A program made the position numbers and the translations under genes. A stretch of 64,000 nt of DNA from contig DAHUXZ010000006.1 in assembly GCA_027315455.1 (NCBI GenBank), positions 8,952 to 72,951 of the forward strand. Direction: 5' to 3'. Of this stretch, positions 11,401-61,094 are shown piece by piece. Numbering within the stretch: the first letter of the stretch is position 1; each line of letters starts with the position of its first letter. The notes beneath the pieces were generated by a model. That model had not been told where the DNA came from, did not search any database, and saw nothing but the letters and a program-made list of their open reading frames with translations. The DNA is from Thermoplasmata archaeon (GTDB lineage Archaea; Thermoplasmatota; Thermoplasmata; Lutacidiplasmatales; UBA184).

Positions 11401-11417
11401 GCGCGGCCGCCCCCGAG

Positions 11418-13999: not shown

Positions 14000-14028
14000 A
14001 GGCCCGTGGGTCCCCCCGCCCGCTCCCC

Positions 14029-14643: not shown

Positions 14644-14651
14644 GCGTCGGG

Positions 14652-15104: not shown

Positions 15105-15295
15105 GCGTCGTCCGAGGGAGCGGGCCCGGGAGGGGCCGACGGCCGGTAGCCGCGGCCGGCCTTAACCCTCCCGGGCGATCCCGCTCCCGGCGCGCGGACG
15201 GGCCCCCCGACCGGGCCCGTCGGGCGATCGCGCGACGAGCCGGGGCGCGCCGCGCGCGACCGCTTAAGAGCCGGCCACCCCATCCCCCGGGGCCC

Positions 15296-17069: not shown

Positions 17070-17079
17070 CGCGCCGGGC

Positions 17080-17856: not shown

Positions 17857-18069
17857 CGGCGGTCCCGCGGACGGACCGGGGCGGGCTAGATAACGGTTCG
17901 CTTTCGGGCCGGTGACCTCGTGCGCCGCGTCGCAGCCACCGGGCGTTCCCGACGCCCAACCTCGGCCGTCCCCGGGCGGCCCTCGCTCGGCGGCCGGGGG
18001 CGCCCTCATCACGGGTCCTTCAGCGTCGAGTCCCGTACGCCCGGCTCGGCCGGCCGCCGAATCCGGACC

Positions 18070-37074: not shown

Positions 37075-37860
37075 ATGGAGGTCCCTGCGTCGCTCCGCGA
37101 GGTGACGGAGGTCGCGGAGGTGGACGGGCTCGCCCTCGCCCCGCTCTCCGAGTGGTTCGGGGAGCTCCTCCCGCACTTCATCGGCGAAACGCTGCGCTGC
37201 GGCGGCGAGGTGGCGCTGGCCGTCCAAGCGGACCACCCGGTGGGCCTCTATCTCTTTAGCCCGGGCGAAGAGATCGCGTCCGTCTTCTCCCGCTCGCCCG
37301 CGGTCGCCGAGATGCTCCTTCGCCACCGGCCGGCCCCCTCGACCTTCGCCGAGTTCGCCCTCGCGCCCGGCGCCGACCCGTATACGGTCTTCCTCGCCGA
37401 GCCGGACCGACGGCGGCCCGACGGGACGCTGCGGCACCCGGTGCGCCGCGCGCGCCCCCGGGACGGGCCCGCGATCGTCGGCCTCAACCGGGTCGTGCAC
37501 GGACGGGCGGACGAGCGCTGGTTCGCCGTTCCCCGACCGGCCTCGGAGCAGTACTTCGTGGTCGAGCTCAACGGCGAGCTCGCCGGCGCGGGCGGCTCGA
37601 CCCTCATCGGCACGACCGGTCGCCTCCACTCGCTCGCGGTCCACCCCCGCTTCCGCCGGCTCGGGGTCGGCACGGACCTCGTCCTCGCCCGCCTGATGTT
37701 CCTGGCCGCCGCGGGAGCGCGCCGCGTCTACTCGGAGATCGCCCAGCGGAACGCGCCGTCGCGGGCGATCGCCGAACGCGCGGGGATGCGCGCCGTCGGG
37801 ACCCTTTTCTGCCACGACCGGCCCCGGGCACCGGCGGGGTCTCCGCCGAGACCTCCCTAG
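37075..37860 (+). CDS. GNAT-family N-acetyltransferase
   Basis: C-terminal LAVHPRFRRLGVGTDLV motif A. Start at internal ATG. The stop codon lies inside the IS1182 left terminal repeat. Confidence 0.55.
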   Translation: MEVPASLREVTEVAEVDGLALAPLSEWFGELLPHFIGETLRCGGEVALAVQADHPVGLYLFSPGEEIASVFSRSPAVAEMLLRHRPAPSTFAEFALAPGADPYTVFLAEPDRRRPDGTLRHPVRRARPRDGPAIVGLNRVVHGRADERWFAVPRPASEQYFVVELNGELAGAGGSTLIGTTGRLHSLAVHPRFRRLGVGTDLVLARLMFLAAAGARRVYSEIAQRNAPSRAIAERAGMRAVGTLFCHDRPRAPAGSPPRPP

Positions 37861-39323
37861 GAGCGCGTAGCGCTATTCGTCTCGCGCACTGATTCGGTTC
37901 GAACGGTGGTACTATAGCCGGGCTCGTCTATCGAGGAGGTATGGCCTCCTCGAAGGGACCGTCATTCCGCAAGTACGATCCGAGTCAGACCGTCCTGCTT
38001 CCGACCAACCTCGACGAGTGGCTCCCCGAGGATCACCTCGCCCGCATCGTGGCCGAGGTGGTCGACCACCCCGACCTCGAGCCGCTCCTCGCCACCTACC
38101 GGAACGCCGAGGGAGGATTCCCGGCCTTCGATCCCCGACTCCAGCTCAAGGTCCTCCTCTATGGTTACTCCGTCGGCGTGGTGAGCTCTCGACGCCTCGA
38201 GAAGGCCACGTTCGAGGACCTCGCCGTCCGGTGGCTCGCCACCGACCAGCACCCGCACTTCACCACGCTCGCCCGGTTCCGCCATCGGAACCTTCCGCTC
38301 ATGGACGGGCTCTTCCACCAAGTGTTGGTGCAGTGCCGGGAGGCGGGCCTCGTGAAGCTCGGTCGGGTAGCACTCGACGGGACGAAGATCAAGGCCAATG
38401 CTTCGAAGCACCGCTCGAAGAGCTACGCCCGGCTTCGAGAGGAAGAGGACGAGCTGCGACGGCTATCGAAGGAGATTCTCCGAGAGGCCGAGAAGGCCGA
38501 CGAGGAGGAGGACCGGCTCTATGGAAAGGACCAGAACCCCCTCCTCCACCCAGCGCCCCCGGATTGGAAGGAGCGGCTGAAGAAGGCCCGTGAGGCGCGC
38601 AAAGCGCTCGAGGAGCGGGAGAGGAAGAAGGGTAAGGAGGCGCCGGAGACCACGGCGCAGTGCAACTTCACCGACCCCGACTCACGAATCGTTCAGGACA
38701 GCGGGAACAAGCGGGCGTTCATCCAAGGATACAACGCCCAAGCGGCGGTGGACGCGAAGAGCCAGGTGATCGTGATGGCGGCGATCACTCAAGAGAACCC
38801 GGACCAACAGCACTTGCTCCCGATGGTCGAGGCCTTGGAGAGGGAACTCGGAGAGCTCCCCGCGAAGCTCCTCTCCGATGCGGGGTACTTCAGCGAGACA
38901 CAGATCCGCGCCGTGGAGGCGAAGGGCGTGACGGTGTACTGCCCTCCGGACTCCTGGCACCTAACAAAAGGGAATCCGTGCCCCCGGGGGCGTCCTCCGA
39001 AGGACGAGGGGTTCAAGCAGTTCTTCCGTCGGAGGGTCCGGAGCTGGCGAGGGCGACAGGAGTACCGCTGGCGGAAGGTCAGCGTGGAACCGGTGTTTGG
39101 GCAGATCAAGCAGGGGAGAGGGTTGCGGCAGTTCCTCCTTCGAGGGAAAGCGAAGGTCGGAGCCGAGTGGAAGCTCTGGTGTCTGACCCACAATATCCGG
39201 AAACTACACGTGGCAAGCCTCGGCTGAAGGCCCGAGGGAGCGGATCGCAAGGGTCCCGAGTTCCACCGAACGAAGGAACGCCGAACGTCCCGCCCCGATC
39301 GGGGTAGAGCTACGCGCTCCTAG
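37857..39323 (+). mobile_element. IS1182-family insertion sequence (~1.47 kb) with ~19-bp imperfect terminal inverted repeats
   Basis: Left end CTAGGAGCGCGTAGC (37857-37871) matches the reverse complement of the right end GCTACGCGCTCCTAG (39309-39323). Single transposase ORF inside. GC ~58% versus ~70% flanking. Confidence 0.8.
37941..39227 (+). CDS. IS1182-family transposase (DDE)
   Basis: N-terminal YDPSQTVLLPTNLDEWLPEDHLARIV and a K/E/R-rich middle region typical of IS1182 transposases. Confidence 0.85.
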   Translation: MASSKGPSFRKYDPSQTVLLPTNLDEWLPEDHLARIVAEVVDHPDLEPLLATYRNAEGGFPAFDPRLQLKVLLYGYSVGVVSSRRLEKATFEDLAVRWLATDQHPHFTTLARFRHRNLPLMDGLFHQVLVQCREAGLVKLGRVALDGTKIKANASKHRSKSYARLREEEDELRRLSKEILREAEKADEEEDRLYGKDQNPLLHPAPPDWKERLKKAREARKALEERERKKGKEAPETTAQCNFTDPDSRIVQDSGNKRAFIQGYNAQAAVDAKSQVIVMAAITQENPDQQHLLPMVEALERELGELPAKLLSDAGYFSETQIRAVEAKGVTVYCPPDSWHLTKGNPCPRGRPPKDEGFKQFFRRRVRSWRGRQEYRWRKVSVEPVFGQIKQGRGLRQFLLRGKAKVGAEWKLWCLTHNIRKLHVASLG

Positions 39324-39329
39324 TGCACG

Positions 39330-39690
39330 CAGATACTCTCCTCAATTTCAGAAGCGACGTAGATCTTCTCCTCGGCCCTCCACCGGCTTGGGTCAAGACC
39401 CTAAAGGGGAAGGGGCGAGCAGCTGCCACAGGGCTAATCCCCGAGATGCGTGAGCGTGGACCCGATGGGAGGTGATTGTCAGGCCTTCGACCGTAAAGAA
39501 TGAGTTCTCGGCCCCTCCCTTCATTGTGGATTCGAATCGAGCGGTGGTTCGTGAGGATTCGCCTGACCTCCAATGAAAGCGGACCGAGGCTCGCAACCCG
39601 GCGTGGGCCTTAGCTCGCGTTCCACCTCCGGCGCAGGATTCACCCTTAGGTTCCTATCCAGGGCGGACCGGTCTGGAGACCCGGTCGAAT
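39330..39690 (+). ncRNA. candidate structured non-coding RNA (possibly SRP/7S RNA-like)
   Basis: ~370 bp with no credible ORF and lower GC. Contains GGGGAAGGGGCGAGCAGCUGCC, which resembles the SRP RNA helix-8 GGAA-tetraloop/AGCAGC region. Confidence 0.2.
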
Positions 39691-39700
39691 GCATGCTAGG

Positions 39701-40573
39701 TCATCGGGTTCGAACAGTCGGGGCCAGAATCTCCCCGCGACTGAGCCGCTGATCCACCTTTCCGAGGGCGAGCCAGAGCCCGTAGAGCAGCGAGACCGGG
39801 GATGGTGGACATCCCGGCACATACACCTCCACGGGGAGTACGCGATCCACCCCCCCTTCGATCTCCGGGGAACTCCGGAACGGTCCTCCGGAGATGCCGC
39901 ACGCCCCCACGGCAATCACGAAGGACGGGCCGGGCAAAGCCCGATAGGTCTTCTCGAGGGCAAGGCGCATGTTCCGAGTCACCGGACCCGTTACCAGCAG
40001 CGCATCGGCGTGACGGGGGGATGCGACGAGGTGGACTCCGAGACGCTCCATGTCGTAGCGTGGCCAAACCAGGGCAGCCACTTCGACCTCGCATCCGTTG
40101 CAGCTCCCGGCGTCTACGGCGCGGATCGCGAGCGATGTGCCGTAGAGCCGTTGGATGCGGTCCCGCACCTCCTCGGCCATCCGAGCCGAAGCCGCGGGCG
40201 GGGCGTCGGGACCGTGCCGGAGGAGTAGGTCCGACCGGCGCCGGACCGCCGTCTCCTCGAACCGGACCGACGTCATCGCTCCCGACGGGCAGGCGTCCAC
40301 GCAGAGCCCGCAGAATAGACACTTCCCGTAGTCGAGCCGGACCGTGATCGTTCCGGGGGCTTGGTCCACCGCGATTGCCCCCGTGGGACAGGCGCGAGCG
40401 CACGCCCCGGTCCTTTCGCATTCGGCGGCGTGGTGAACGGGGGTCCGGGGGGGGCCGTCCCACTCATCGAGCGGGCCGAGCGGATACCGGATCGTGCCCA
40501 TTGCGGGAAGGAGCGGCTCCGGGGCGGGGACCCTGGGGGGCGCCAGTGCGGGGTCGACCGGCGTCTCCGTCAC
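39701..40573 (-). CDS. fusion of a 2x[4Fe-4S] ferredoxin (NuoI/HyfH-like) and a NuoB/hydrogenase small-subunit-like protein
   Basis: N-terminus CERTGACARACP and CLFCGLCVDACP. C-terminal part has AVGACGISGG, SCNGCE and VPGCPP motifs of NuoB/HycG. Confidence 0.75.
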   Translation of the reverse strand: MTETPVDPALAPPRVPAPEPLLPAMGTIRYPLGPLDEWDGPPRTPVHHAAECERTGACARACPTGAIAVDQAPGTITVRLDYGKCLFCGLCVDACPSGAMTSVRFEETAVRRRSDLLLRHGPDAPPAASARMAEEVRDRIQRLYGTSLAIRAVDAGSCNGCEVEVAALVWPRYDMERLGVHLVASPRHADALLVTGPVTRNMRLALEKTYRALPGPSFVIAVGACGISGGPFRSSPEIEGGVDRVLPVEVYVPGCPPSPVSLLYGLWLALGKVDQRLSRGEILAPTVRTR

Positions 40574-42228
40574 CGATCATACCCTGAATAGGAGAGATTG
40601 AGGCTCTTGTTGCACAGCGGGAAGTCTGGGACGATGTTCCCCCTAACCGCGAGCTCGATTGCCGGCCAGTTCAGGAACGACGGGTCCCGCACGTGCACCC
40701 GTTCGAGTTTCGCCCCCGGCCCCAGAGTGACGTGAACGAGGTACTCGCCCCGCGGGGATTCCACCCAGCCGAGACCGGACCGGCCTTCGGTCCCAGGCTG
40801 TGCGGGAACGTCACCTGGGACCGAAACACCTTGTCGAACGCTCGAGAGGAATCTCTGAGCCAGCCGACAAGATTCGACGATCTCCTCGATCTTGACCACC
40901 AACCGGGCTTGCACGTCCCCGTCGATCCCTCGGGGAACCCGCACCTCGTTCCCGAGGTAGGCACCGTACGGTCGGTCGTGCCGCAGATCGATGCGTAACC
41001 CGGAGGCCCGGGCCGTAGGACCGACGAAATGCATCAGCTCCGCAATCCACCGAGGGATGGTCCCAGTGCCCTGCAGACGGTCCACCACCGACGACTTGCC
41101 GAGCAGCTCCTCCCGCAGGGCGACGATTCCGTCGCGGAGTCGCTCGTAGGTGCCCCCCAGCTCGGGGGTCGCGCTCACCCGGACCGGCCGTCGCAGGCCG
41201 CCGACCCCGACGACGCCTCGGCCCAATCGGGACCCGGTGAGGGCCTGGAGTGTCTGATACGCGGACTCCCGGAGCCGGTTCGCATGAGCGGCCCCAACGG
41301 GGTAGCCGACGTCCAAGGCGATGCCGGCTACATCCCCGCAAAGGAACGCCATCCGTTCTGTCTCCATCAACAGACCACGGAGGATCTCGTCGTCAGGCGG
41401 GACGGGAAGTTCGAGGGCCCGCTCCACGGCGTGGGCGTACGCCACTGACCCAGCGATGGACATGTCGCCGGAAACCGACTCCGCCCATATCGTCCCGAGG
41501 TCGCTCGGCTTTCCTTCGAACAGCCGCTCCGTCCCTTTGTGGTTGTAGCCTAGGCGGACCTCCAGGTCCAGGATATTTTCCCCGACGACCTGGAACCGGA
41601 AGTGTCCGGGTTCGATCACCCCGGCGTGGACAGGGCCGACGGGGACCTCGTAGACGCCTTCGCCCTCCACCATGGAGAACGGGTACTCGACCCGCTGACC
41701 GTCGGGGGCGGAGTCGGGGCCCTTGAGGAGCGGCGGGGCGGGATGTCCTTCGTGCAGCAGCAGCGGTCGTCGGTCCTCCAATCCGTCGAACACGACGCCG
41801 AACATCTCCGCGACCTCCCGTTCAAAGGGTGCAGCGTACGGCAACGTCGTCGAGAGCGTCGGTAGCGTCGGTCGGTCCGGATCGATTGCACAGACGAAGT
41901 GGACGCCCCCGGAGGGCAGGGTCCCGAGGAACAACGCGTGAATCCGGATCTTCCCGAGGTAGCTCCGGGCATCCTCGCCGAAGAGCGTCGAGAGCGGGTG
42001 ATGCAACGAGTCCAGGGCGAGGGCGGCCGCGGCGTTCCACCGCTCCGGCGGCACTGGCACCCGCCAGAGCTCCTCGGAGGGGTCCCACGCGACCGAGGTG
42101 GTCCCGAGCTCTAGGAGCATGCGTCGCTCCTCGGCGGGGGTAGGTCGGCTCGGGAAGTCGCTGACCAGGGCCACCGACGGGGCCGGCTCTCTAGGGACCT
42201 CCTCCCCCTCCTTCGGAAGTCGGATCAT
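40570..42228 (-). CDS. NuoC-NuoD fusion (complex I 30-kDa plus 49-kDa / hydrogenase large-subunit-like) lacking [NiFe] cysteines
   Basis: NuoD-like RLGYNHKGTERLFEG where hydrogenases have RxCGxC. C-terminus ends ...NLSYSGYDR rather than DPCxxC. Start ATG overlaps the upstream stop. Confidence 0.8.
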   Translation of the reverse strand: MIRLPKEGEEVPREPAPSVALVSDFPSRPTPAEERRMLLELGTTSVAWDPSEELWRVPVPPERWNAAAALALDSLHHPLSTLFGEDARSYLGKIRIHALFLGTLPSGGVHFVCAIDPDRPTLPTLSTTLPYAAPFEREVAEMFGVVFDGLEDRRPLLLHEGHPAPPLLKGPDSAPDGQRVEYPFSMVEGEGVYEVPVGPVHAGVIEPGHFRFQVVGENILDLEVRLGYNHKGTERLFEGKPSDLGTIWAESVSGDMSIAGSVAYAHAVERALELPVPPDDEILRGLLMETERMAFLCGDVAGIALDVGYPVGAAHANRLRESAYQTLQALTGSRLGRGVVGVGGLRRPVRVSATPELGGTYERLRDGIVALREELLGKSSVVDRLQGTGTIPRWIAELMHFVGPTARASGLRIDLRHDRPYGAYLGNEVRVPRGIDGDVQARLVVKIEEIVESCRLAQRFLSSVRQGVSVPGDVPAQPGTEGRSGLGWVESPRGEYLVHVTLGPGAKLERVHVRDPSFLNWPAIELAVRGNIVPDFPLCNKSLNLSYSGYDR

Positions 42229-43700
42229 CCGTTCACCACCTGGACCGCCCCGTGCAGGAGCTGGGAGAGGGGGTCCGGGAGGAGGAGGCCGAGGGCGAGG
42301 GCGACGGCCAGCACGACTCCGAGCCCGAGGGAGGCGCAAACGACGGCTCGGGTCTCCGGGGCGTATGGGTGGCCGGGGGGGCCGAGGAGCATGCGGGTCA
42401 AGTGCCAAGAGAGCGCCCCGAACGCCAATACGAGGGCAATCAGCATGAGGCCAGCCGCGACGCCGTTGCCCTGCGAGAATCCCGCGGAAAGGATCAGGAG
42501 CTCGCTGGAGAACATCGAGAACGGGGGCACGCCGGCAAGGGCCAGCCCGCCGAGCAGCAGGAGCGCGCCGGTCCCTGGGGCGGCCACCAGGGCGCCCTGA
42601 ATCTCCTGCAGGTCCTTGGTCCGGGCAGCGAGGGCGAGGTTTCCGCTCACCAGGAACAGGGCGGTCTTGGTCGCCGCATGGTTCAAGAGGTGGTAGAGCG
42701 CGCCGAAGAGTCCGATCGCGCCCCCGAAGGCGAGACCGAGAGCGATGATGCCCATGTTCTCCACAGAGGAGTAGGCGAGCAGTCGCTTCAGGTCCCGCTG
42801 AACAAAGAGGAACAGCGCCGCGAGGAAGACCGAGAGGAGGCCGAAGATCAAGAAGAACCGCTGGGTCCAGAGAAAGCCCGGGATCCTCAGGGTGATCGCG
42901 TAGATCCGGATGAGAGCGTACATGGCGCAGTTGAGAAGCGCACCGGAGAGGAGCGCGGAAACCGGCGTCGGCGCCTCCGAGTGGGCATCCGGGAGCCAGG
43001 TGTGGAGCGGCGCGAGGCCGGCCTTCGTCCCGTACCCAACGAAGAGGAAGACGAGGGCGAGGCGCACTAGGCCCGGGTCCAGCTGGGATCCCGACGACAC
43101 CAGGGTCGTCCAATTCAGCTCGGAGTTTCCCGCGCCGAGGACGTGAACGGAAGCGACGTAGAGCAGGAGCGTTCCGAAGAGGGCGAAGACGAGTCCGACG
43201 CTGCAGAGGATGAGGTATTTCCAGGACGCCTCCTGGGCCCGTCGGGTCTGGTAGTAGCCGACCAGCAATGCCGAGGCCAGGGTCGTCCCCTCCAATCCGA
43301 TCCAGAGCACCCCGAGGTTGTTCGCTTCGGCAACGAGGTACATCGTGAACAGGAACAGGAAGACGAGCTGGTAGTACCGGCGCAACCTTGGCAGCGGCGC
43401 TTCATGCGGACTGCCCGACCGACCGAGGTAGTCGACGGAGTACAGGAGCGAGGCGAGCCCGACGACAGCGACGATGAGGAGGAGTAGCCCTGACAGGTCG
43501 TCCACATAGAGCAACCCCCCGTACGAGGAGAGGGCCCCGAGAGTGAGGAGCGCCTGCAGCAGGAAGGCCACCACCAGGCCGAGGGCCAGAGCCACCGCGA
43601 TGGCGACTGCGTTTGCCTGGTCTCGGGTGCGGGCGAAAGCGACGGCGCCAGCCCCCGCGAGCGGCACGATGAGGACGAGGAGGATCCAGGGGATCGGCAC
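42225..43700 (-). CDS. NuoN/NuoM-HyfF-like proton-pumping antiporter subunit
   Basis: 14-TM Mrp-antiporter-like protein with GTKAGLAPLHTWLPDAH motif. Confidence 0.75.
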   Translation of the reverse strand: MPIPWILLVLIVPLAGAGAVAFARTRDQANAVAIAVALALGLVVAFLLQALLTLGALSSYGGLLYVDDLSGLLLLIVAVVGLASLLYSVDYLGRSGSPHEAPLPRLRRYYQLVFLFLFTMYLVAEANNLGVLWIGLEGTTLASALLVGYYQTRRAQEASWKYLILCSVGLVFALFGTLLLYVASVHVLGAGNSELNWTTLVSSGSQLDPGLVRLALVFLFVGYGTKAGLAPLHTWLPDAHSEAPTPVSALLSGALLNCAMYALIRIYAITLRIPGFLWTQRFFLIFGLLSVFLAALFLFVQRDLKRLLAYSSVENMGIIALGLAFGGAIGLFGALYHLLNHAATKTALFLVSGNLALAARTKDLQEIQGALVAAPGTGALLLLGGLALAGVPPFSMFSSELLILSAGFSQGNGVAAGLMLIALVLAFGALSWHLTRMLLGPPGHPYAPETRAVVCASLGLGVVLAVALALGLLLPDPLSQLLHGAVQVVNG

Positions 43701-43709
43701 GGCGGGGGC

Positions 43710-44366
43710 TCACCCCTCCAAGGCCCGCAGGGCATCGGCGTCGACGTGGTCGAACGACTCCTTCATCCTCTCGAGGAAGATCCTGGCCACGATCGCAAGG
43801 ACGAGGAGGTTCGCCGCGAGGCCGAGCTCGACGAAGAGCCCTAGGCCGTACGTGAGGGCGATCCCGGCGAGGAAGATCCCGTTGTTCATCACCAAAAGGC
43901 CGACGACCTGGGTAATCGCCTTGCGTCGGGTGATCAGGAGAAAGAACCCGATCAATAGCACGGCCACGGAGATCGGCAACAGCCCGGCCGAAGGGACTTC
44001 CGCAAAGGGTGTGATCCCCCCGACGACCCAGACCGAGACGAGGAGGATTGCGAGCCCTGCCAACGCGCTCGCTCGGACGGAGGCGTACATGTTGACCATC
44101 CGGGAGACGCCGAGGTTCCGGACGACGCGACGCAGCAGCCATGGCAGCACGATCGCGTTGACGACAATCGTGAGTCCGGCGAGAACGTAGATGTCCGGTG
44201 CCTGGTACTGATACGCTACCAGGCCAGCGGTGATGCCGAGGGCGCCGGACTGGATCGCGTAGGTGTCGACGAGGGCCTCGATCCGCCGGTGGATGAGGGA
44301 GATCCACGCGGTAACCAGCACGATGGCGGCGGAGATGTCGAGGGCCTGGACCGCCAGCACGATCAT
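43710..44366 (-). CDS. HyfE-like small membrane subunit
   Basis: 218-aa polytopic membrane protein positioned as in hyf operons. Start overlaps the upstream stop. Confidence 0.55.
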   Translation of the reverse strand: MIVLAVQALDISAAIVLVTAWISLIHRRIEALVDTYAIQSGALGITAGLVAYQYQAPDIYVLAGLTIVVNAIVLPWLLRRVVRNLGVSRMVNMYASVRASALAGLAILLVSVWVVGGITPFAEVPSAGLLPISVAVLLIGFFLLITRRKAITQVVGLLVMNNGIFLAGIALTYGLGLFVELGLAANLLVLAIVARIFLERMKESFDHVDADALRALEG

Positions 44367-45328
44367 GCGCCCCCGCCGACGACGTACGTGAGGGCGAGGG
44401 ATCCGAAGGCGAAGACGACGGCCAGAGTCGTCAGGTCCGCGACGCGGAAGAGTCGCCACTTGGCGACCCCGGCCTCGAGCCGGCTGACGAGCACGTGTGC
44501 CCCGAGGAGCTTGATCACGACGATCCCAACGGCGAGCGAAACGAGGGCAAGGGTCCACGACGTGCTGATGCCCCACGGCGCGGCGAGGGCGATCAAGAGC
44601 CCGATCATGATCGCAAGCTTGAACCCCCGACCCCACTCGAGGAGGGCGAGGTCGCGGCCCGAGTACTCCAGCACCATCGCTTCGTGCACCATGGTGAGCT
44701 CGAGGTGGGTAGCCGAGTTGTCGATAGGGAGCCGGCCGGTCTCCACGAGCAACAACAGCACATAGGCGACGATGGCCAGCAGCAGCGGTGGGCTGGCGTA
44801 CGCGATCCCGAGAGAGACGCCCCGGGCCGCGATGGCCCCGGCCTGCGTCGAGCCGGCAGGGCTGCCGAAGGCGAAGATGACTAGGAGGAACACTGGCTCG
44901 GCGAGAGCTCCCATCCACATTTCTCGGGTCGATCCCATGCCGCCGAAGGTGCTCCCGGCGTCCGTGGCCGCGAGAGCAGTGATGAACCGGGAGAGCGCGA
45001 GGAGCCCGACCAGCACGATCAGATCGCCAAAGGTCCCAAGCGGCGACGGCAGGACGAACCAGGGGATCAGGGGAACGGTGGCGAGGAGCGCCGCGAAGGA
45101 GATCGCCGGCGCGTAACGGGTGACCCACGAGGCGGATTTCGAGTACACCGCATCCTTGCCGATCAGTTTCCAGAGATCCCGATACGGCTGCAGGAGAGGC
45201 GGACCGACGCGCCCCTGGGTACGGGCCTTGACCCGGCCAAGCACCGCGAGGAGGAGCGGTGAGAGACCAAGGACGAGGAGGTACTCCCCGACGAACGCGA
45301 CCAGTTGGGCGGGCACCGACGCGGTCAC
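44363..45328 (-). CDS. NuoH/HyfC-HycD-like membrane subunit
   Basis: 8-TM NuoH-family pattern (GRVKARTQGRVGPPLLQPYRDLWKL). Confidence 0.75.
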   Translation of the reverse strand: MTASVPAQLVAFVGEYLLVLGLSPLLLAVLGRVKARTQGRVGPPLLQPYRDLWKLIGKDAVYSKSASWVTRYAPAISFAALLATVPLIPWFVLPSPLGTFGDLIVLVGLLALSRFITALAATDAGSTFGGMGSTREMWMGALAEPVFLLVIFAFGSPAGSTQAGAIAARGVSLGIAYASPPLLLAIVAYVLLLLVETGRLPIDNSATHLELTMVHEAMVLEYSGRDLALLEWGRGFKLAIMIGLLIALAAPWGISTSWTLALVSLAVGIVVIKLLGAHVLVSRLEAGVAKWRLFRVADLTTLAVVFAFGSLALTYVVGGGA

Positions 45329-47391
45329 GGTGCGGGTCCCCCGACGGCGCGAACGAGCAGCAGGAGCCCGACGAGGGTGACGAAGATGTACGCCAGGTAC
45401 GCGTGGATGCGGCCGGACTGGAGCCGGCTCATCCTACGGGCGAGCCCGAAGATCCCGGACGCGACGGGAGGGAACACCCACGCCCGGATCGGCTCGGCAA
45501 TCTCCACGGTGTACCGTCTCACCCGGGCGAGGACGATCCATGGCGGTCGCAGGGCCGGCGCGCTATCGGAACGCTCTATCGGCCGGTAGAACTCTTCAAA
45601 GATGCGCACCACGGGCTGGGCGTATCCGGTGGCGGTATACTCCATCCTGGGGGTGGGCGCATCGAGACCGCAGTCCCACATCGGTCCTACGACGGTGGCG
45701 GGAGCCCCCCGGATCCGCCAGACGGCCCACGCGACCAGGAGCCCCGCGCCCAGAAGGAGCGCGACAGCTCCGGGGGCAAGCGGGAGAGAGCCCCCGGAGC
45801 CGTTGGGCAGGTTGGACAGCACCGAGAGGGAGACCCCCGAGCCGACGGCGGCTCCCGTCAACTCCCGCAGGGGCCGAGTGGCGAGATCGAGCGCGAGGAC
45901 CGGCGCGACGCCTAGGGCGAGGCAGAACGCGGCGAGGATCCCCATCCCCCCCACCAGGGAGGAGGGAGGCGAACCCGCGAGCTCGGCCTGCTGGGACCGG
46001 GGCCTCGCCAGGAAGGCGATCCCGAACGCCTTGACGAAGCAATAAGCGGCTAGCCCGCTGGTGAGCGCGAGCACCGCGGCCAGGATCGAGAGCGTCATCT
46101 CCGCGGTGACGGAGCCCGTGGAGAATGCGGCGAAGAAGCTCTGGAAGAGGAGCCACTCGCTGACGAAGCCATTGAACGGCGGCAGAGCAGAGATCGCCAT
46201 CGCGCCGACGAAGAAGCCCAGCGCGACGCCCGGCATCCGCCGGATGAGGCCGCCCATCCGCTCGAGGTCGCGCGTCCCGGTCTCCCCGACTGCGGCACCG
46301 GCGCCGAGGAAGAGGAGCGACTTGAACAGTGCGTGGTTCCAGGTGTGCAGGAGCGCCGCCGCGAGAGCGAGTGCTGCGAGAGCCGGGTAGCCGAGGTTCT
46401 GGAACAGGAGCCCCGCGCCCACGCCGAGGAGGATGATGCCGATGTTCTCGATGGAGTGAAACGCGAGGAGCCGTTTCAGATTGTGTTGGACGATGGCGTA
46501 GAGCACCCCAGCCAGCGCCGAGACCCCGCCTAGGGCGAGGATCGTGTACGCCCACCAGCTGGGCCCCCCTCCTAGCAGGCCGAGGACGACGCGGAGGAGA
46601 CCGAAGATTCCCAGCTTGATCATCACGCCGGACATCAGTGCCGAGACGTTGCTTGGCGCGGCGGGGTGGGCGTCCGGCAGCCAAGAATGGAAGGGTACCA
46701 TGGCGGCCTTCGTGCCGAACCCTACGAGGGCCGCCAGGAACACGGCGTCGCGAACTCCGGGCGGGAGCCCCCCGGCGCCCGCAGCAATCCCCTCCCAGGT
46801 GGTCGACCCGGTCGCCGTCGCCAGCAGCAGGAACGAGACGAGGATCGCCCCCGTGGCCGCGTGGCTCATCACGAGGTAGACGAGGCCCGCCTCGCGGCTC
46901 TCCGCGTCCTCGTGGTCGTGAATGACGAGGAAGTAGGAAACAAGGGTCATCGCCTCCCACGCGACCAGGAAGAGGAAGATGGTCCCCGCGGTGCATACCA
47001 GCACCATCGTCAGGACGAAGAGGCCGCATCCTCCGGCGAGGAACCCACGGCGTTGAGGAACGTACCGCTCGGCGTACCCGACCGAAGCCAGCAATATCGC
47101 GGATCCGCTGACGGATACGACCAAGAGGAAGAACGCCGAGAGCGGATCCTCCTGAATCCCCAGGGCGAGCACCGGCGATGCCGGCACCGTCCCCGGCAAC
47201 CCTAGGGACGACGCGGGCAGCGTCCCTCCGAGCAGGACCAGGACCGATTGGACCGTGGTGATGGCGCAGGACAAGGCGCCCAGCAGGAACGACGCTCGGA
47301 CCTCCACCGGCCGACGGCTGGCGAACCCCAGCACGGTCGCGGCTGAGAGTCCGGCGAGAGAGACGAGCAGGAGCAGTTCGCGAAGATTCAT
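45325..47391 (-). CDS. NuoL/HyfB-HycC-like antiporter subunit
   Basis: 688-aa Mrp-antiporter-like subunit with GFGTKAAMVPFHSWLPDAH motif. Confidence 0.8.
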   Translation of the reverse strand: MNLRELLLLVSLAGLSAATVLGFASRRPVEVRASFLLGALSCAITTVQSVLVLLGGTLPASSLGLPGTVPASPVLALGIQEDPLSAFFLLVVSVSGSAILLASVGYAERYVPQRRGFLAGGCGLFVLTMVLVCTAGTIFLFLVAWEAMTLVSYFLVIHDHEDAESREAGLVYLVMSHAATGAILVSFLLLATATGSTTWEGIAAGAGGLPPGVRDAVFLAALVGFGTKAAMVPFHSWLPDAHPAAPSNVSALMSGVMIKLGIFGLLRVVLGLLGGGPSWWAYTILALGGVSALAGVLYAIVQHNLKRLLAFHSIENIGIILLGVGAGLLFQNLGYPALAALALAAALLHTWNHALFKSLLFLGAGAAVGETGTRDLERMGGLIRRMPGVALGFFVGAMAISALPPFNGFVSEWLLFQSFFAAFSTGSVTAEMTLSILAAVLALTSGLAAYCFVKAFGIAFLARPRSQQAELAGSPPSSLVGGMGILAAFCLALGVAPVLALDLATRPLRELTGAAVGSGVSLSVLSNLPNGSGGSLPLAPGAVALLLGAGLLVAWAVWRIRGAPATVVGPMWDCGLDAPTPRMEYTATGYAQPVVRIFEEFYRPIERSDSAPALRPPWIVLARVRRYTVEIAEPIRAWVFPPVASGIFGLARRMSRLQSGRIHAYLAYIFVTLVGLLLLVRAVGGPAP

Positions 47392-47575
47392 GGACCGGGG
47401 GTTCGCGCGGTCCCGTCAGGGAACGACCGACGGGGGGTCCGCGCCGGCGCAGTGCAACGGGACCATACGATGATGGAGGAGCCGGGCCAGGTCATCCCGA
47501 GGCGGTTGGGATAGTCTAAGACGGTCTGGACCGACTCCGATACGGTAATTACCCCTCCGGCGCCCTGTCTCACGC

Positions 47576-48712
47576 ATGGGCCCCACTCCGGAAGTCGAGC
47601 CGGCGTCGTCCTCCCCGCGGCGGCGTAGCCCGGCCGAGTTCCGCCGGCCCGGGGGGCCCTCCCGGCCGCCTCCGAGGCAGACCCCGAGGCATCTTCACCG
47701 ATCCGGGCCTCATACTCTCGCGGTCAGCCTCCCGAAATCTTGGATCGATGGGCACTCTCTCACCCGGGGGTCCGTGGTCTGGCTCCACTCGAGGGACGAC
47801 GGAAGACTGGTAGTCGCCCCGGCTAGCCCCGAGGGGGCGGGGCCGGCCGGGGATCGGGTGTTGACGATCGGTTCAAACCACTTTGGCGACCCCCAGGTCC
47901 TCGCTCGGACGGTCTTCGGCGGGTATGTGGTCGGGTATGACCGGATCGAACTCATCGACGCCGATGGATTCGACCGGGACCGGCGACAGGAGCTGGAGCG
48001 CACGGCCCACGCCTTTGTGGGGCTGCAGGTGGTGTTCCACGACACCCATCGTGTGACTTTGCAGAGCTTCCTGGACGCCCGTCGGCACACTGTCCCGAAG
48101 GTCTTGACCCGGGCGGGTCTGGTAGTGGAGGAGATGGCCCAGCTCCTCGCGGCGGCGGTCCGGGGTTCGTCCAAGGTGCCGATCAAGGAACTCGCGGCGA
48201 TGGAAGCGGAGTCCGACCGGCTGTATGCCCTGGCGCTGCGACAGCTCATGCTCGCGCAGGGCGACCCCGCGCTGGCTCGCCTATTGGATGTGCGAGAGCC
48301 TCGAGACCTTCTCGGGGGTCGGATCGTCGGCAAGATCTACGAAGAGATCGCGGACCTTCTCTGCAGAGCTGCGCCGGAGCTTCGGGCCGGCCTGGAAGGG
48401 CGGGAGCTGCCGGGTGCACTCCGGGCGGACCTGGTGGGCCATGTGGAGGCGCTCCGGACGATGGTGCAAGACTCCTCCCGCGCCCTCCTGAAAGAGGACA
48501 GCAATCTCGCCCACCGGGTTCTGCGCCATCGGGAGGACGGCCTCGAGGCGCTGCACCGAACCGAGCATCTCTTGGCGCGGGCCCGACTCCCCCGACGGCA
48601 AACCGCGTCGCTGGCAATCTTCGCGTGGGGGCTTGGGACCTCCCGTCGACTCTGCGGGACCATTGCCGAGGTCGCGCTCAACGAATCGATCCAATCGACG
48701 GCCACCGGGTAG
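47576..48712 (+). CDS. PhoU-family regulator with N-terminal AbrB/SpoVT-like domain
   Basis: TLAVSLPKSWIDGHSLTRGSVVWL swapped-hairpin domain followed by two PhoU-like repeats. ~45-aa Arg/Pro-rich N-terminal extension of doubtful reality. Confidence 0.65.
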   Translation: MGPTPEVEPASSSPRRRSPAEFRRPGGPSRPPPRQTPRHLHRSGPHTLAVSLPKSWIDGHSLTRGSVVWLHSRDDGRLVVAPASPEGAGPAGDRVLTIGSNHFGDPQVLARTVFGGYVVGYDRIELIDADGFDRDRRQELERTAHAFVGLQVVFHDTHRVTLQSFLDARRHTVPKVLTRAGLVVEEMAQLLAAAVRGSSKVPIKELAAMEAESDRLYALALRQLMLAQGDPALARLLDVREPRDLLGGRIVGKIYEEIADLLCRAAPELRAGLEGRELPGALRADLVGHVEALRTMVQDSSRALLKEDSNLAHRVLRHREDGLEALHRTEHLLARARLPRRQTASLAIFAWGLGTSRRLCGTIAEVALNESIQSTATG

Positions 48713-48902
48713 CACCGCACCCCCCGGGAAGGCCTCGAAAGATCACCGGGATCCGGACGAACTCCGTGATGGGGGCCATAACGCACGCATTCAGCTCGAC
48801 CTTTTCTGAAACGCAGTTGAGTCGCGAGGAATGAGCGGCCGCATGGTCGGATTCCCTGCGGCTTCAGGATTCTAGGGTCGCGGGCCGGGCTGGACATTGA
48901 AT

Positions 48903-50108
48903 CTAGTGGCGCGGCCACGAAAGAAGGTTGACCCTATCGGGGCCTGAGCCAGATCGGCATCTTGGCTCTGCGACGGTGGTCTTTGCGCACGGTGTCGCGG
49001 AACCGCTTCCCTCGCGCCTGTCGTTCTTCGTTCCGATAGCGGACCGCCGAGGCGAGCACTTCGCCCACGGCCTCAGGGGTCGTGTGCGTCTCCCCGGCCA
49101 TCGCCAGCTTCTGCAGATCCCCGGCGTGGCACTCCACCGGGTTCAGGTGACTCGCATGGGTGGGCGTTGAGAACAGCCGTACCTTGTTCGCCTTCGCCCA
49201 CTGACGGATCGCTGCCGTCCAGTGGTTGCTCGCCCCGTCCCAGATCAGGTTCACCCACTGGTCGGTGGGATACTCCGCCCGCACGTCCTTCAGATACTCC
49301 AGCCAGTTCGCCGCGTGCTTCGTTCGGTAGACCCGACCGAACAGCCGCTGGTGGAACACGTTCAGCGTGAGGAAGTAGTAGACCGTCCCGAACTTCCGCT
49401 CATACTCGGCGGGAATGCGCGCCGGGATCTTCTGAGGGAACCATCCCTCGCCTCCGTGGGGGATCAGTTGGATCGGTCCGATCTCATCCGCCGAGAGGAC
49501 CACCGGCGGATTGTGCCGCTTCCGAGTCAGCTGGTCGATCTTCCGCTTCTTCTCCTCGAAGAGGGGGTCTGGGGAGGTCTTCCAGGTGCGGATCGACTGG
49601 TGGGAGACCTCATCCTCGTGGAGGATCACGCGGAGCCACTCCTCGCTGATCGACTCTACGATGCCGCGTTTCACGGCCTGCTCCCGAAGGCGGGAGAGCG
49701 ACCACTGGGCGTAGGGTAGTTCGAGGTCGCGTGGTCGGCTGAGGGCGAGGTCGACCAGCGCCTTGCGCTGGTCGTCGGTGAACTTCGGGGGTCGGCCGGG
49801 CCCCCACTTCGGCTGGAGCATGGCCATCCCATGCTCGTTGAAGGCGCGGATCACCCCACGAATGTAGTCCTCGCTCGCCAGGGCGATGATGGTAATCCGA
49901 GGAGGGGTGTTCCCCTGGTAGCTCGCGAGCACGATCTGGGCGCGCTTGAACTCGATGGCGTTCTGCCCGTGGCGGACGATGTGACGGAGCTTCTGTCCTT
50001 CCTCGAGCGTTAGGTCACGGACCCGCAGGACCATGCCACCGGGATAGCGCAACCCCGGAAAGTACCATCGGTCCAAAGGTCAGGCAACTTTACCGGCCGC
50101 GCCACTAG
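48903..50108 (-). mobile_element. IS630 (Tc1/mariner)-family insertion sequence, ~1.2 kb
   Basis: Terminal inverted repeats CTAGTGGCGCGGCC (48903-48916) and its reverse complement GGCCGCGCCACTAG (50095-50108), with a partial match extending ~15 bp inward. Single DDE transposase inside. GC ~57%. Confidence 0.75.
48934..50076 (-). CDS. IS630-family transposase
   Basis: N-terminal HTH (RVRDLTLEEGQKL, KRAQIVL) and DDE_3 domain (...WDGASNHWTAA...). Non-ATG start in the ORF track; the true start may be the internal Met. Confidence 0.8.
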   Translation of the reverse strand: MDRWYFPGLRYPGGMVLRVRDLTLEEGQKLRHIVRHGQNAIEFKRAQIVLASYQGNTPPRITIIALASEDYIRGVIRAFNEHGMAMLQPKWGPGRPPKFTDDQRKALVDLALSRPRDLELPYAQWSLSRLREQAVKRGIVESISEEWLRVILHEDEVSHQSIRTWKTSPDPLFEEKKRKIDQLTRKRHNPPVVLSADEIGPIQLIPHGGEGWFPQKIPARIPAEYERKFGTVYYFLTLNVFHQRLFGRVYRTKHAANWLEYLKDVRAEYPTDQWVNLIWDGASNHWTAAIRQWAKANKVRLFSTPTHASHLNPVECHAGDLQKLAMAGETHTTPEAVGEVLASAVRYRNEERQARGKRFRDTVRKDHRRRAKMPIWLRPR

Positions 50109-51157
50109 GTCCGGGGAGCGCCGCACTTCGGGCAGACGGTCGCCGTGGTGTCGATGAGCGTCCCGCAGTAGCGGCAGTTGGTCTTGACCGTCTCCTGAAG
50201 GACGATCTGCTGGACCGGCGGCTGCGCCACCTGCCCGAGGCCGAGCGGCGGCGGGGACGGGAAGTTCGCGCGGTCGTAGGCGATCGTGCCCGGCGCCCCG
50301 TGACGGGGCAGCGTCGCGCCCCGTCGCCGGCGTCCCACGGCCCAGATCGCGACCACGACGACCAGGACGAGGACGAGCGCGCCGACGACGATCGTGGCGA
50401 CCTCGGCGACGTCGAGCCCCGCGGGAGGGGGCGGTGGCGGCGCCGCCGCCGGGGTGAGCGGGTAGCTCGTGCTGGTCGCCGCGAGCGTGTCGGTCCAGGT
50501 GAACCCGTCCCCCGTGCCATCGCGGTCGGTCTCGGTGTAGAGGTAGCCCACGATGTAGCCCGAGCCGGGGTCGAAGTACGCCTTCCAGGTGTACGTCGCG
50601 GTGAAGACGCCGTAGACGTCGTTGCGCTGGTAGGTGCCGTTGCCCTCGGCGAAGAGCGTCCGCACGTAGCCGGTGGGGCTCGAGGCCAGCGGGTAGGAGA
50701 CGTTCGTCCCCACCACCACGAGCTCGCTGTTGAGGACGTAGAAGCTCGCGCCGGGCCGGAGCGCGGAATCCATGTAGAACCAGACGTAGGGATCGACGTA
50801 CCCCGTCTGGTTGTCGGTCCCCTGGACGTAGTGGTACGTCGTCGGGGAGAACGTGAACGTCCCCTTAACGGGGACGATCTCGCTCTGGCCCGCGTTGCTG
50901 ACCCAATGGGTCACGCTCTGGTACGTGGTGTTCGCGGACCCGTTCGCGAGGAGGGAGGTGTCGTGGAGGCTGCCGTTGATGAAGGAGTGCTCGGTGTAGC
51001 CGGTGTAGTTGCCGACGCCGCCGTCGAGGACGATCGTCTCGGTGTAGGCCAGCTGGTCGCCGGCGTTTACCGCGCGCGGGAGCGGGCGGGCGACCGCCGC
51101 GGGAAGGAGGGCGAGGAAAAAGATCGCGGCGACGGCCAGCAGGCGTACCGCTCTCAT
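50105..51157 (-). CDS. predicted surface glycoprotein with signal peptide, C-terminal TM anchor and cytoplasmic zinc ribbon
   Basis: MRAVRLLAVAAIFFLALLPAA signal, many N-x-S/T sequons, TM (VATIVVGALVLVLVVVVAIW), then CRYCG...CPKCG. Start ATG overlaps the upstream stop. Confidence 0.5.
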   Translation of the reverse strand: MRAVRLLAVAAIFFLALLPAAVARPLPRAVNAGDQLAYTETIVLDGGVGNYTGYTEHSFINGSLHDTSLLANGSANTTYQSVTHWVSNAGQSEIVPVKGTFTFSPTTYHYVQGTDNQTGYVDPYVWFYMDSALRPGASFYVLNSELVVVGTNVSYPLASSPTGYVRTLFAEGNGTYQRNDVYGVFTATYTWKAYFDPGSGYIVGYLYTETDRDGTGDGFTWTDTLAATSTSYPLTPAAAPPPPPPAGLDVAEVATIVVGALVLVLVVVVAIWAVGRRRRGATLPRHGAPGTIAYDRANFPSPPPLGLGQVAQPPVQQIVLQETVKTNCRYCGTLIDTTATVCPKCGAPRT

Positions 51158-52680: not shown

Positions 52681-52681
52681 G

Positions 52682-53884: not shown

Positions 53885-54053
53885 CCGCCCCCCGCCGCGG
53901 CCCCCGACGCGATCGACGGCCCGTTCGACGCGATACCCGCAGCCCCCGGACTCGCGGGCATCGCACCCTCGGCGGGCCCTCGAGCCGGAGGAGCCCCAAA
54001 AGGGTTCCCCGGCAGGGCCCCGCCGCCGTCAGGTCCCCACGTCGCCCCGTGAG

Positions 54054-58097: not shown

Positions 58098-58203
58098 GCG
58101 CTCCCACGTCCGAAACGGGTCGCGGTCGAGAGATTCGCCGCCGGCACGATAAACCCTTGGAGCACGCCGCCGCCCGTCGGGGAGCCCGGGATCGCCGGTG
58201 ATC

Positions 58204-60937: not shown

Positions 60938-61094
60938 GCGGGCCCGGCCGCCGCGTGAGCCATCTTTTATATCGCCGGGACGGCATGTTTGCCGGCGCGG
61001 GCCCCCTCCCATCGGGCGTCGGGCCTAGTTCCTCGGGGGGGCGAAGGCCACGACGGGCTCCGGCGGCATCGGAACGCTTCCCTCCTCTCGCCTG

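Follow-up and report, generated by a model that had tools for sequence, protein, structure and literature searches.

What does a membrane complex do that is built like an energy-converting hydrogenase, yet has lost every ligand of the [NiFe] centre? This question is raised by a six-gene operon in a 64,000-nucleotide stretch of DNA from a Thermoplasmata archaeon (GTDB lineage Archaea; Thermoplasmatota; Thermoplasmata; Lutacidiplasmatales; UBA184; GenBank assembly GCA_027315455.1, contig DAHUXZ010000006.1, positions 8,952 to 72,951 of the forward strand). This whole stretch is referred to as the window. An original prediction, made from the sequence alone, had assigned the operon to the Ehr complexes. 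Our analysis leads to the same family: the operon is intact and very probably encodes an Ehr-type complex with a membrane arm (EhrA-D) and a peripheral arm (EhrL and EhrS). What this complex does is a more tentative matter. The explanation that we prefer, in which the Ehr identity is taken together with the oxidation of ferredoxin, the reduction of an acceptor other than protons and the translocation of ions, has a probability of roughly 0.45.

The name Ehr reportedly stands for Ech-hydrogenase-related and was given by Coppi to GSU0739-45 of Geobacter sulfurreducens; Marreiros et al. are said to have published a survey in 2013. In the literature Ehr (EhrA-D, EhrL and EhrS) was first named in Geobacter and has been noted in Margulisbacteria, Saganbacteria, Melainabacteria, comammox Nitrospira and ammonia-oxidising archaea; its function is stated to be unknown (PMC7894505, PMC6349859, PMC10284858, PMC10432482).

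An intact and coupled operon

The minus strand between 39701 and 47391 contains six long open reading frames (ORFs), whose borders agree with the coordinates of the original prediction (Table 1). They are transcribed in the order EhrA, EhrB, EhrC, EhrD, EhrL, EhrS, and all six are intact. Adjacent genes overlap by 4 nt (ATGA or GTGA) at four of the five junctions and are separated by a 9-nt gap at the fifth; overlapping or close junctions of this kind are the signature of a translationally coupled operon, and this is one. The 3' half of the operon was assembled identically, together with the neighbouring transposase, in a separate sequencing run (locus L001; related loci are given by such L numbers in the following). 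About 12 distinct loci of Thermoplasmata share this six-gene order, and the genes on either side vary wherever the flanks could be read.

The best Pfam and NCBIfam models are of the Hyf type for all operon genes, and the solved relatives are HycE, HycD, HycG/MbhJ and HycF. The ORFs and these assignments agree with the subunit types that had been proposed for the six genes. It had also been claimed that no NADH-dehydrogenase module lies nearby, and indeed no NuoE/F/G domains were present among the roughly 46 window ORFs scanned; the same holds for Hyp and formate dehydrogenase domains.

The large subunit has lost the [NiFe] ligands

We aligned EhrL with solved relatives using HMMER. The best of these is HycE from E. 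coli (7z0s_E; E = 5e-52), and the alignment extends to the final residue. The group 4 [NiFe] hydrogenases have the motifs RxCGxC (L1) and DPCxxC (L2), and EhrL contains neither of them. At L1 the sequence SVSGDMS is opposite to RVCGICG in HycE ('esvSgdMs' vs 'drvCgiCg'); the alignment with Pyrococcus MbhL (RMCGICS) has the same outcome. At L2 the sequence NLSYSGYDR is opposite to DPCYSCTDR in HycE ('nlSysGydr' vs 'dpCysCtdr'). The four ligand positions in EhrL are thus Ser, Met, Ser and Gly, every one of them a sense codon; the sole cysteine noted in the protein is C539 in PLCNKS, with none at L1 or L2. As a positive control, the Ech-type large subunit encoded in L008 has ERVCGICS and DPCICCTDR in exactly the corresponding places of the alignment. 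The claim that the large subunit has lost both cysteine pairs therefore stands after alignment to HycE- and NuoD-type proteins. Selenocysteine at the lost positions is ruled out by the sense codons and by the alignment to the last residue. Because the ligands are replaced by sense codons, neither misalignment nor selenocysteine rescues a NiFe site, and EhrL is predicted to be unable to bind a [NiFe] centre.

The surroundings of the former site are conserved. The beta1-beta2 loop GPVHAGVIEPGHFRF, R493 and D551 are invariant in the cysteine-less relatives and in the true hydrogenases. Invariant in both groups are also E206, R493 and D551 as the proton-relay and canopy residues of hydrogenases, a role that has been described for HycE (PMC9474812). 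R493 appears to correspond to HycE Arg478, as read off the HycE alignment with the numbering unconfirmed; Arg478 is the 'canopy' arginine and part of the proton-handling environment of the site (PMC9474812). The residues which distinguish the cysteine-less from the four-Cys group are essentially the L2 cysteines together with D306 and P516. The mainstream inference from such a protein is that without the cysteines it is not a hydrogenase; one laboratory has reported in vivo hydrogenase activity for cysteine-poor relatives of the Hyq type (PMC3357923).

The small subunit retains a path of Fe-S clusters

EhrS consists of two domains, with Pfam matches to Fer4_7 (residues 52-99) and Oxidored_q6 (residues 158-266). 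Residues 139-282 align to MbhJ (6e-41) and HycG (1.5e-39), and this NuoB domain retains GSCNGCE, GACG and PGCPP, which contain the four [4Fe-4S] ligands in the order C-x2-C ... C ... C. All four align to those of HycG and MbhJ, as had been proposed for the small subunit. The GSCNGC-type motif is kept in 120 of 120 small-subunit homologues.

Residues 26-118 align to HycF (4e-11), MbsN and NuoI, which points to a HycF/NuoI homologue and not to a generic ferredoxin. This domain has seven cysteines and not eight, in the motifs CERTGACARACP and CLFCGLCVDACP (window positions 40270-40420, residues 52-100). Motif 2, CLFCGLCVDACP, is complete; motif 1 reads C-E-R-T-G-A-C-A-R-A-C-P (CxxTxxCxxxCP), with Thr at the position of the second Cys. 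An absent middle cysteine in a ferredoxin motif is the pattern of a [3Fe-4S] cluster. The incomplete form is common in the family: among the homologues with two recognisable motifs, 33 of 37 have C-x5-C-x3-CP in motif 1, where the absent Cys is replaced by T, S, A or G, and just one of the 37 has the canonical motif. Remoter bacterial fusions have only four cysteines in the ferredoxin domain; motif 2 supplies three of them and motif 1 the CP cysteine, and these four would together ligate one cluster. The fact that the fully ligated cluster is retained everywhere suggests that it is the neighbour of the NuoB cluster; the variable cluster would then be the distal one, at which electrons enter. 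Across the family, the end of the path at which electrons enter seems to be degenerating or undergoing re-tuning.

The original prediction had called the fusion of NuoI and NuoB unusual, and this did not hold. All 120 of the best small-subunit matches are fusions of 259-324 aa with the same two domains, including proteins from Acidobacteria (Bryobacteraceae and the cultured Paludibaculum fermentans), and the fusion was seen in all Thermoplasmata relatives examined. In L008, L018 and L019 each half has a gene of its own, next to that of the other half, with an 8-nt overlap in L008, and the bacterial locus L010 has a NuoB gene only, in first place. The NuoC-NuoD fusion of EhrL is the architecture of HycE and HyfG; such a fusion also forms the large subunit of hydrogenase 3 in E. 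coli (PMC9474812).

The membrane subunits are of the Hyf type

EhrA matches the NCBIfam model 'hydrogenase 4 subunit B' from end to end (648 bits). It contains the charged residues of the antiporter-like subunits, which are conserved in the relatives: a Glu in transmembrane helix (TM) 5 (WEAM), a Lys in TM7 (GTKAA), a Lys in TM8 (MIKLG) and a Glu in TM12 (FVSEWL). The assignment of these motifs to helices is our assumption. The TM7 Lys and the TM12 Glu are kept in both antiporter-like subunits of every relative, and EhrA keeps the TM8 Lys too; at the TM8 position EhrD has Asn, where some relatives have Lys. The best matches of EhrD in the Protein Data Bank (PDB) are MbsH, which is the top one, and MbhH. 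EhrB has matches only to HycD (7z0s_D; 5.9e-39), MbhM (2e-19) and MbsM (6e-11). EhrC matches the NCBIfam model 'hydrogenase 4 membrane subunit' (HyfE) over its full length (E = 2e-18) and the NuoK-type Oxidored_q2 model weakly; its start was placed at the ATG that overlaps the upstream stop. Judged from these matches, the membrane arm is predicted to resemble Hyf, i.e. the second formate hydrogenlyase (FHL-2).

Phylogenetic position of the operon

The nearest relatives of the large subunit are 48-82% identical and come from metagenome-assembled genomes (MAGs); those with a name are labelled Thermoplasmata or Euryarchaeota, and a relative with 60% identity is from Ca. Lutacidiplasmatales. In the 120 nearest clusters at 90% identity the L2 cysteines are absent without exception and Ser/Ala-Gly is found in their place; the consensus of the replacement in the family is [NS]xSY[SA]GxD. 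The L1 motif [IVL]SGDx[SAC] occurs in 103 of these 120 clusters, which include Methanoperedens, ANME-2, Methanomassiliicoccales and Elusimicrobia.

An exhaustive HMMER search in 1.84 billion cluster representatives resulted in 620 proteins at E <= 1e-30. From these an alignment was made of 151 sequences, comprising the query and the 150 best representatives of clusters at 50% identity. At the four ligand positions 113 of the 151 have a single Cys or none, and 27 have the full four; the representatives with one Cys (n=14) are of the CSSG, CSAG and CASG types. In a neighbour-joining tree of 132 representatives, which is a distance tree without support values, the 25 full-length four-Cys sequences all fall within one clade of 27 tips and the query is placed among the cysteine-less sequences. 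The true hydrogenase nearest to EhrL is about 37% identical. This pattern points to a family that is under purifying selection as a re-purposed enzyme, and not to decay.

The gene set of group 4, the ligand-free large subunit, the retained [4Fe-4S] site and the position in the tree all agree with the Ehr-type assignment. The locus is a new archaeal member of a widespread family that already has a name.

Table 1. Operon genes and neighbouring features, with positions in the window.
Feature	Position	Strand	Size and evidence
EhrA, HyfB/NuoL-like antiporter-like subunit	45325-47391	-	688 aa; Pfam Proton_antipo_M E = 4e-54
EhrB, HycD/NuoH-like membrane anchor	44363-45328	-	321 aa; Pfam NADHdh E = 7e-30
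EhrC, HyfE-like small membrane subunit	43710-44366	-	218 aa; NCBIfam 'hydrogenase 4 membrane subunit'
EhrD, HyfF/NuoM/N-like antiporter-like subunit	42225-43700	-	491 aa; NCBIfam 'hydrogenase 4 subunit F', 447 bits
EhrL, NuoC+NuoD (HycE/HyfG-like) large subunit without [NiFe] ligands	40570-42228	-	552 aa; Complex1_30kDa + Complex1_49kDa
EhrS, HycF/NuoI-like ferredoxin domain fused to HycG/NuoB-like domain	39701-40573	-	290 aa; Fer4 dicluster + Oxidored_q6
AbrB/SpoVT + alpha/beta + PhoU-fold protein (AbrB-PhoU)	47576-48712	+	378 aa; Pfam PhoU 34.4 bits, MazE/AbrB 26.7 bits
Divergent intergenic region	47392-47575		tandem repeat GTCTAAGAC-G-GTCTGGAC at 47514-47531
IS1182-family element	37857-39323	+	transposase 37941-39227, 358 bits (NF033551 cut-off 270)
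IS630-family element	48903-50108	-	transposase 48934-50076, 149 bits (NF033545 cut-off 100)

Comparison with known systems

According to its published description, the Ehr system of Geobacter has the same subunits as the window system: a NuoL-like EhrA, a NuoH-like EhrB, a HyfE-like EhrC and an antiporter-like EhrD, together with an EhrL without CxxC and an EhrS with an Fe-S cluster (PMC7894505, PMC6349859). Ehr has been placed beside the group 4a/4f hydrogenases (PMC10284858, PMC10432482). Unlike Geobacter Ehr, the system in the window is archaeal, its EhrS has the seven-Cys HycF/NuoI-like N-terminal domain, and it is accompanied by a lineage-specific gene for an AbrB-PhoU protein.

The closest experimentally studied system is Hyq from Azorhizobium caulinodans. 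The hyqRBCEFGI cluster shares with the window operon the six structural genes B, C, E, F, G and I and their order, and it has a regulator gene in addition (PMC3357923). HyqG is a NuoC::NuoD fusion which lacks both CxxC motifs, as EhrL does, while HyqI retains CxxC...C...C (PMC3357923). The two systems would be set apart by the description of HyqG, which keeps three conserved cysteines (Cys-258, together with Cys-491 and Cys-497; PMC3357923) whereas EhrL has none at the ligand positions; the one-Cys types in our alignment also differ from the window protein. Furthermore, Hyq is a member of the nif regulon in diazotrophic alphaproteobacteria; a transcriptional activator serves as its regulator, whereas the window has AbrB-PhoU, and HyqI is described as a NuoB homologue only, whereas EhrS is a NuoI-NuoB fusion. 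In vivo, mutants in hyq no longer recycle or produce H2 (PMC2650096, PMC3357923). An activity of Hyq has never been shown with purified enzyme, and the authors themselves call the NiFe site 'uncertain, if not unlikely' (PMC2650096, PMC3357923).

The E. coli formate hydrogenlyase (FHL) with hydrogenases 3 and 4 (7Z0S) provides the best solved relative of four subunits, namely HycE, HycD, HycG and HycF. It shares with the window cluster the NuoC-NuoD fusion, a proximal cluster of the CxxC type and B-C-(D)-E-F-G-H-I as the order of the genes. Several features of Hyc/Hyf are missing from the window cluster, namely the NiFe ligands, the HycB/HyfA polyferredoxin, FdhF and HyfD; there are no genes for a maturation protease or Hyp proteins near it, and its H and I genes are fused.

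Complex I and its relatives NDH-1 and Fpo share with the window cluster the homologues of NuoB, C, D, H, I, L and M/N as well as a K-like subunit, and they have no NiFe site. As in complex I, electrons in the window complex could plausibly travel over Fe-S clusters to a pocket where NuoB and NuoD meet. The differences are considerable. The core of complex I has 11 subunits, the window operon has six genes; it encodes two and not three antiporter-like subunits, and NuoA and NuoJ are missing. The counterparts of Tyr87 and His38 (numbering of T. thermophilus Nqo4), which we take to be the ligands of the quinone head group in complex I, are absent, as are the tandem cysteines of cluster N2, and no closer relationship to complex I is detectable for the NuoH-like subunit.

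The MBH hydrogenase and the MBS (Mbx) complex of P. furiosus are membrane-bound relatives, and in MBS the hydrogenase site has been converted to other chemistry. MbsH and MbhH are the top solved matches of EhrD, and MbhJ is that of the NuoB domain of EhrS. EhrL is nearer to HycE (5e-52) than to MbhL (2.5e-32) or MbsL (5e-18). MBS and MBH have 13-14 subunits with an Mrp-type module, while the window cluster has six genes and none that resemble MbsA-G.

Proposed function and alternatives

In the mechanism that we prefer, reduced ferredoxin or a similar low-potential donor would dock on the HycF/NuoI-like N-terminal domain of EhrS. Electrons would pass from the modified distal three-Cys cluster, probably [3Fe-4S], over a [4Fe-4S] cluster to the proximal [4Fe-4S] cluster of the NuoB type. 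In the former NiFe pocket, which would be lined by SGD and NLSYSG and keep the proton-relay residues, a non-proton acceptor would be reduced, most likely a membrane quinone. The energy would be transmitted via the HycD-like subunit to the two antiporter-like subunits, where it would drive H+ or Na+ through the membrane; the opposite direction of the reaction is conceivable as well. The architecture predicted for the complex, i.e. a conserved path of three Fe-S clusters to a metal-free pocket, an anchor of the HycD type and two antiporter-like subunits, is consistent with such an ion-translocating oxidoreductase. The Ca. Lutacidiplasmatales are high-GC (about 69%), aerobic or facultatively anaerobic archaea; they possess cytochrome bd quinol oxidase and complexes III and IV, so that a quinone pool is to be expected (PMC9287336).

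Several observations weigh against this proposal. That ferredoxin would be the donor we infer by comparison with Ech and MBH, in which electrons enter at the NuoI-like subunit, and because an input module is missing. Quinone would be the most plausible acceptor because the relatives are quinone-respiring aerobes; no feature of the complex pinpoints the acceptor. The three-Cys cluster of EhrS is probably [3Fe-4S], with the Cys pattern as the sole basis for this assignment. In the alignment of EhrL with Thermus Nqo4 (2fug_4), 'rmdYlhs' is opposite to 'svsGdms', so that the Tyr position is Gly, and the His of 'stHg' aligns to Ile. With the NiFe cysteines lost and the Tyr and His of Nqo4 unmatched, the pocket in EhrL would be neither a NiFe site nor a canonical quinone site of complex I. 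EhrS reads C-N-G-C where complex I chains read 'CC', and hence has the hydrogenase-type proximal motif; the tandem Cys-Cys of cluster N2 separates complex I from the membrane-bound hydrogenases (PMC9474812). No NuoH chain of complex I was found with EhrB in the PDB at E <= 1e-3, and NuoA, NuoJ and a third antiporter-like subunit are not among the six operon genes, of which the lack of NuoA and NuoJ counts in particular. Because the quinone ligands of complex I are absent and the anchor and cluster motif are of the hydrogenase type, we put the mechanism at about 0.4.

Some of these observations, and a few others, can be read in favor of a soluble acceptor other than quinone, either polysulfide or sulfane sulfur as in Pyrococcus MBS/Mbx or the disulfide of a partner enzyme, again with coupled ion translocation. 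EhrL lacks the quinone ligands, EhrB matches only HycD, MbhM and MbsM, MbsH is the top solved match of EhrD, and an HdrD-like protein (Fer4 + CCG) is encoded beside the cluster in four relatives of the Methanomassiliicoccales type. MBS, however, uses a site-differentiated cluster, whereas all four proximal-cluster cysteines are present in EhrS; the extra subunits of the MbsA-G/Mrp type are missing. There is no HdrD-like gene in the window, nor beside the close relatives with listed neighbours, and no gene of sulfur metabolism is conserved beside the operon. We consider this alternative unlikely. A purely ionic role is somewhat less probable still; here the complex would mainly be a cation/proton antiporter or ion-gradient device in which the Fe-S arm acts as a redox sensor or gate. 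This would explain why the antiporter-like subunits keep their charged residues while no donor or acceptor module is encoded nearby, and it would fit the degenerate distal cluster of the wider family and the bacterial fusions that keep one ferredoxin-type cluster. The ligands of the proximal cluster, the adjacent cluster and the proton-relay residues, however, are strictly conserved over large distances in evolution, which is unexpected for a purely structural arm.

The Hyq system raises the question whether the complex could be an unorthodox hydrogenase, as has been claimed for this 'endo-hydrogenase' (H2:quinone oxidoreductase). Hyq has the same six structural subunits and a regulator gene, its mutants are impaired in H2 metabolism even though HyqG has no CxxC (PMC2650096, PMC3357923), and EhrL retains the proton-relay residues. 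Yet the ligand positions S, M, S and G leave no ligand for NiFe, and in place of the three conserved cysteines of HyqG (PMC3357923) EhrL has none at L1 and L2. One-Cys proteins are a minority in the family, the window contains no hyp or maturation protease genes, and for Hyq itself the lack of data from purified enzyme and the doubts of its authors about NiFe apply. Taken together, an unorthodox hydrogenase is improbable, slightly more so than an antiporter with a redox sensor. Least probable by far is that the operon is the decaying remnant of a group 4 [NiFe] hydrogenase or a misread bona fide one. It is true that the closest named models are hydrogenase 4 subunits and that the cluster lies in an island flanked by insertion sequences (IS). 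But the ORFs are intact and coupled, and hundreds of distant relatives, which form a group separate from the true hydrogenases, have kept the substituted motifs; a misreading is further contradicted by the positive control in the alignment and by the sense codons at the lost positions.

The preferred mechanism has a bolder version, which we regard as doubtful, about on a par with a soluble acceptor. In Thermoplasmata that live aerobically or as facultative anaerobes, the complex might be a minimal complex I, a ferredoxin:quinone ion pump or its reverse, in which the SGD/NLSYSG pocket would be a new site for quinone or another small molecule, the [3Fe-4S] entry cluster would be oxygen-tolerant and AbrB-PhoU would switch the system as its dedicated sensor. 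More radical is the idea that the family could retain a cysteine-independent handling of H2, as claimed for Hyq.

The AbrB-PhoU gene and the intergenic region

The original prediction had noted a divergently transcribed PhoU/AbrB-like gene next to the operon. The gene is there and both domains were confirmed, with Pfam matches that exceed the gathering scores; in addition, the gene proved to be conserved as part of the module. When the protein sequence was searched against the PDB, only chance matches came up, and the likeness to PhoU was found by a fold search. We used an AlphaFold model, built with 14 database homologues, in which the predicted local distance difference test score (pLDDT) is 73.6 overall and exceeds 90 in the C-terminal half. 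The model has a bundle of six helices, predicted with high confidence, at residues 173-376; it matches crystal structures of PhoU with a TM-score of up to 0.76 on the target. The NCBI gene call (P0175) has 312 aa and begins within the AbrB domain; the start at 47576, which gives 378 aa, is backed by 14 homologues of 363-522 aa.

The AbrB-PhoU gene adjoins the operon in 10 of the 12 full-length loci of the Thermoplasmata clade that were checked. In the window, as in L002, L003, L004, L011, L012 and L092, it lies upstream in divergent orientation; in L006, L007, L013, L015 and L017 it is downstream on the same strand, with 33% identity; in L016 and L020 it was not detected. A database search resulted in 17 homologues. 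All 16 strong ones are from this lineage, and nine of the 16 seemingly share their source sequence with a match of the Ehr large or small subunit. AbrB-PhoU is the only conserved neighbour in most of the relatives examined and is for this reason probably a dedicated regulator.

The repeat block in the divergent intergenic region is conserved in five of five aligned upstream regions. The pattern GTCTAAGAC-G-GTCTGGAC occurs once in the window, where 0.09 occurrences are expected, and it recurs in the same intergenic region of L002, L003, L011 and L012. An extra match in L016 is inside a large gene for a PKD-repeat surface protein and was taken as chance. The sequence TAATTA lies about 26 nt upstream of the AbrB-PhoU ATG. 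The tandem repeat is a candidate operator and TAATTA a putative TATA element; AbrB-PhoU probably controls transcription from the shared intergenic region.

Insertion elements and base composition

The operon had also been described as bracketed by two IS elements. Both are present and complete, but their position is incidental, as no relative has them. The IS1182-family element has terminal inverted repeats of 19 nt (95% complementary), the IS630-family element has repeats of 31 nt (77% complementary), and the inverted repeats of both begin with CTAG. Neither the elements nor their transposases were present beside the cluster in any of the relatives checked, and the IS elements are not part of the system. 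A composite transposon is ruled out by the different families of the two elements, and a conserved mobile element by the fact that neither transposase recurs in relatives. A conserved wider neighbourhood was likewise rejected: with the exception of AbrB-PhoU, none of 22 flanking window proteins recurs beside the cluster.

The window has about 73% G+C, while the stretch from 38 to 50 kb has 64-69%. Within 37857-50108 the module between the two elements has 67.8% and the IS elements 64%, and both sides have 73.3%. In relatives the G+C of the cluster matches that of the flanks, and one relative with 74% identity is from a genome of about 67% G+C. The low value compared with the flanks here, together with the match to the flanks in relatives, suggests that the module was recently acquired, from a relative with about 67% G+C.

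The operon and IS1182 are separated by a non-coding stretch of 377 bp (39324-39700) with a lower G+C than its surroundings; an 87-codon ORF at 39310-39573 has no family match. On the other side, the right inverted repeat of IS630 abuts the end of the first of the long ORFs at 50105-54028.

The host and the remainder of the window

The window encodes aIF2-alpha, aIF5A, ribosomal L15e, a P0 insertion domain, Nop56/58 and aTrm56, and in addition DRG and YGR210-type GTPases and PAC2. These marker genes identify the host as an archaeon, in agreement with its assignment to Thermoplasmata. Scans of the whole window for Rfam families and tRNAs gave no matches.

Some other ORFs deserve mention. A 1399-codon stop-to-stop ORF on the minus strand (54054-58253) contains the anticodon-binding domain of a class I tRNA ligase (residues 654-799) and a C-terminal DUF835 (residues 1275-1389); this could be an unusual fusion, or else two genes that were taken for a single one. 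The plus-strand gene at 9078-11129 encodes a GMC-family FAD oxidoreductase with an N-terminal domain like subunit 3 of gluconate 2-dehydrogenase, possibly a dehydrogenase that is membrane-linked or exported by the twin-arginine (TAT) pathway. Long ORFs of about 650, 520, 450 and >990 codons (stop to stop) with a high G+C at third codon positions (GC3) are found at 50105-54028 on the minus strand and at 61029-63998 on the plus strand; they have no Pfam or NCBIfam match, and one ends in a zinc ribbon.

Among the relatives, the loci of the Methanomassiliicoccales type (L008, at 2647-18458, L009, L018 and L019) have genes for an HdrD-like protein (Fer4 + CCG) and a rubrerythrin upstream of the Ehr cluster and a gene for a universal stress protein downstream of it. 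In L008 a bona fide Ech [NiFe] hydrogenase operon follows 1 kb downstream. This arrangement hints at a link between Ehr and HdrD in methanogenic Thermoplasmata. As a partner of the window complex HdrD was rejected, since the arrangement is conserved only in relatives of this type and the window contains no HdrD-like gene.

Implications

Ehr is the least understood branch of the superfamily of complex I and group 4 hydrogenases. One consequence of the present analysis concerns annotation: genes in MAGs of Thermoplasmata which are labelled 'hydrogenase large subunit' or 'NADH-quinone oxidoreductase subunit C' should not be read as evidence of H2 metabolism or of an NADH dehydrogenase. The locus does not add a new kind of system; it is a clean archaeal example of Ehr. 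What it adds is the seven-Cys ferredoxin domain, the conserved AbrB-PhoU gene with its candidate operator and the signs of a recent acquisition. With six structural genes, one probable regulator gene, sharply conserved replacement motifs and a candidate operator, the compact system could be useful for experiments, and if the assignment from the Cys pattern is true, the complex would have a predictable [3Fe-4S] signature in electron paramagnetic resonance (EPR).

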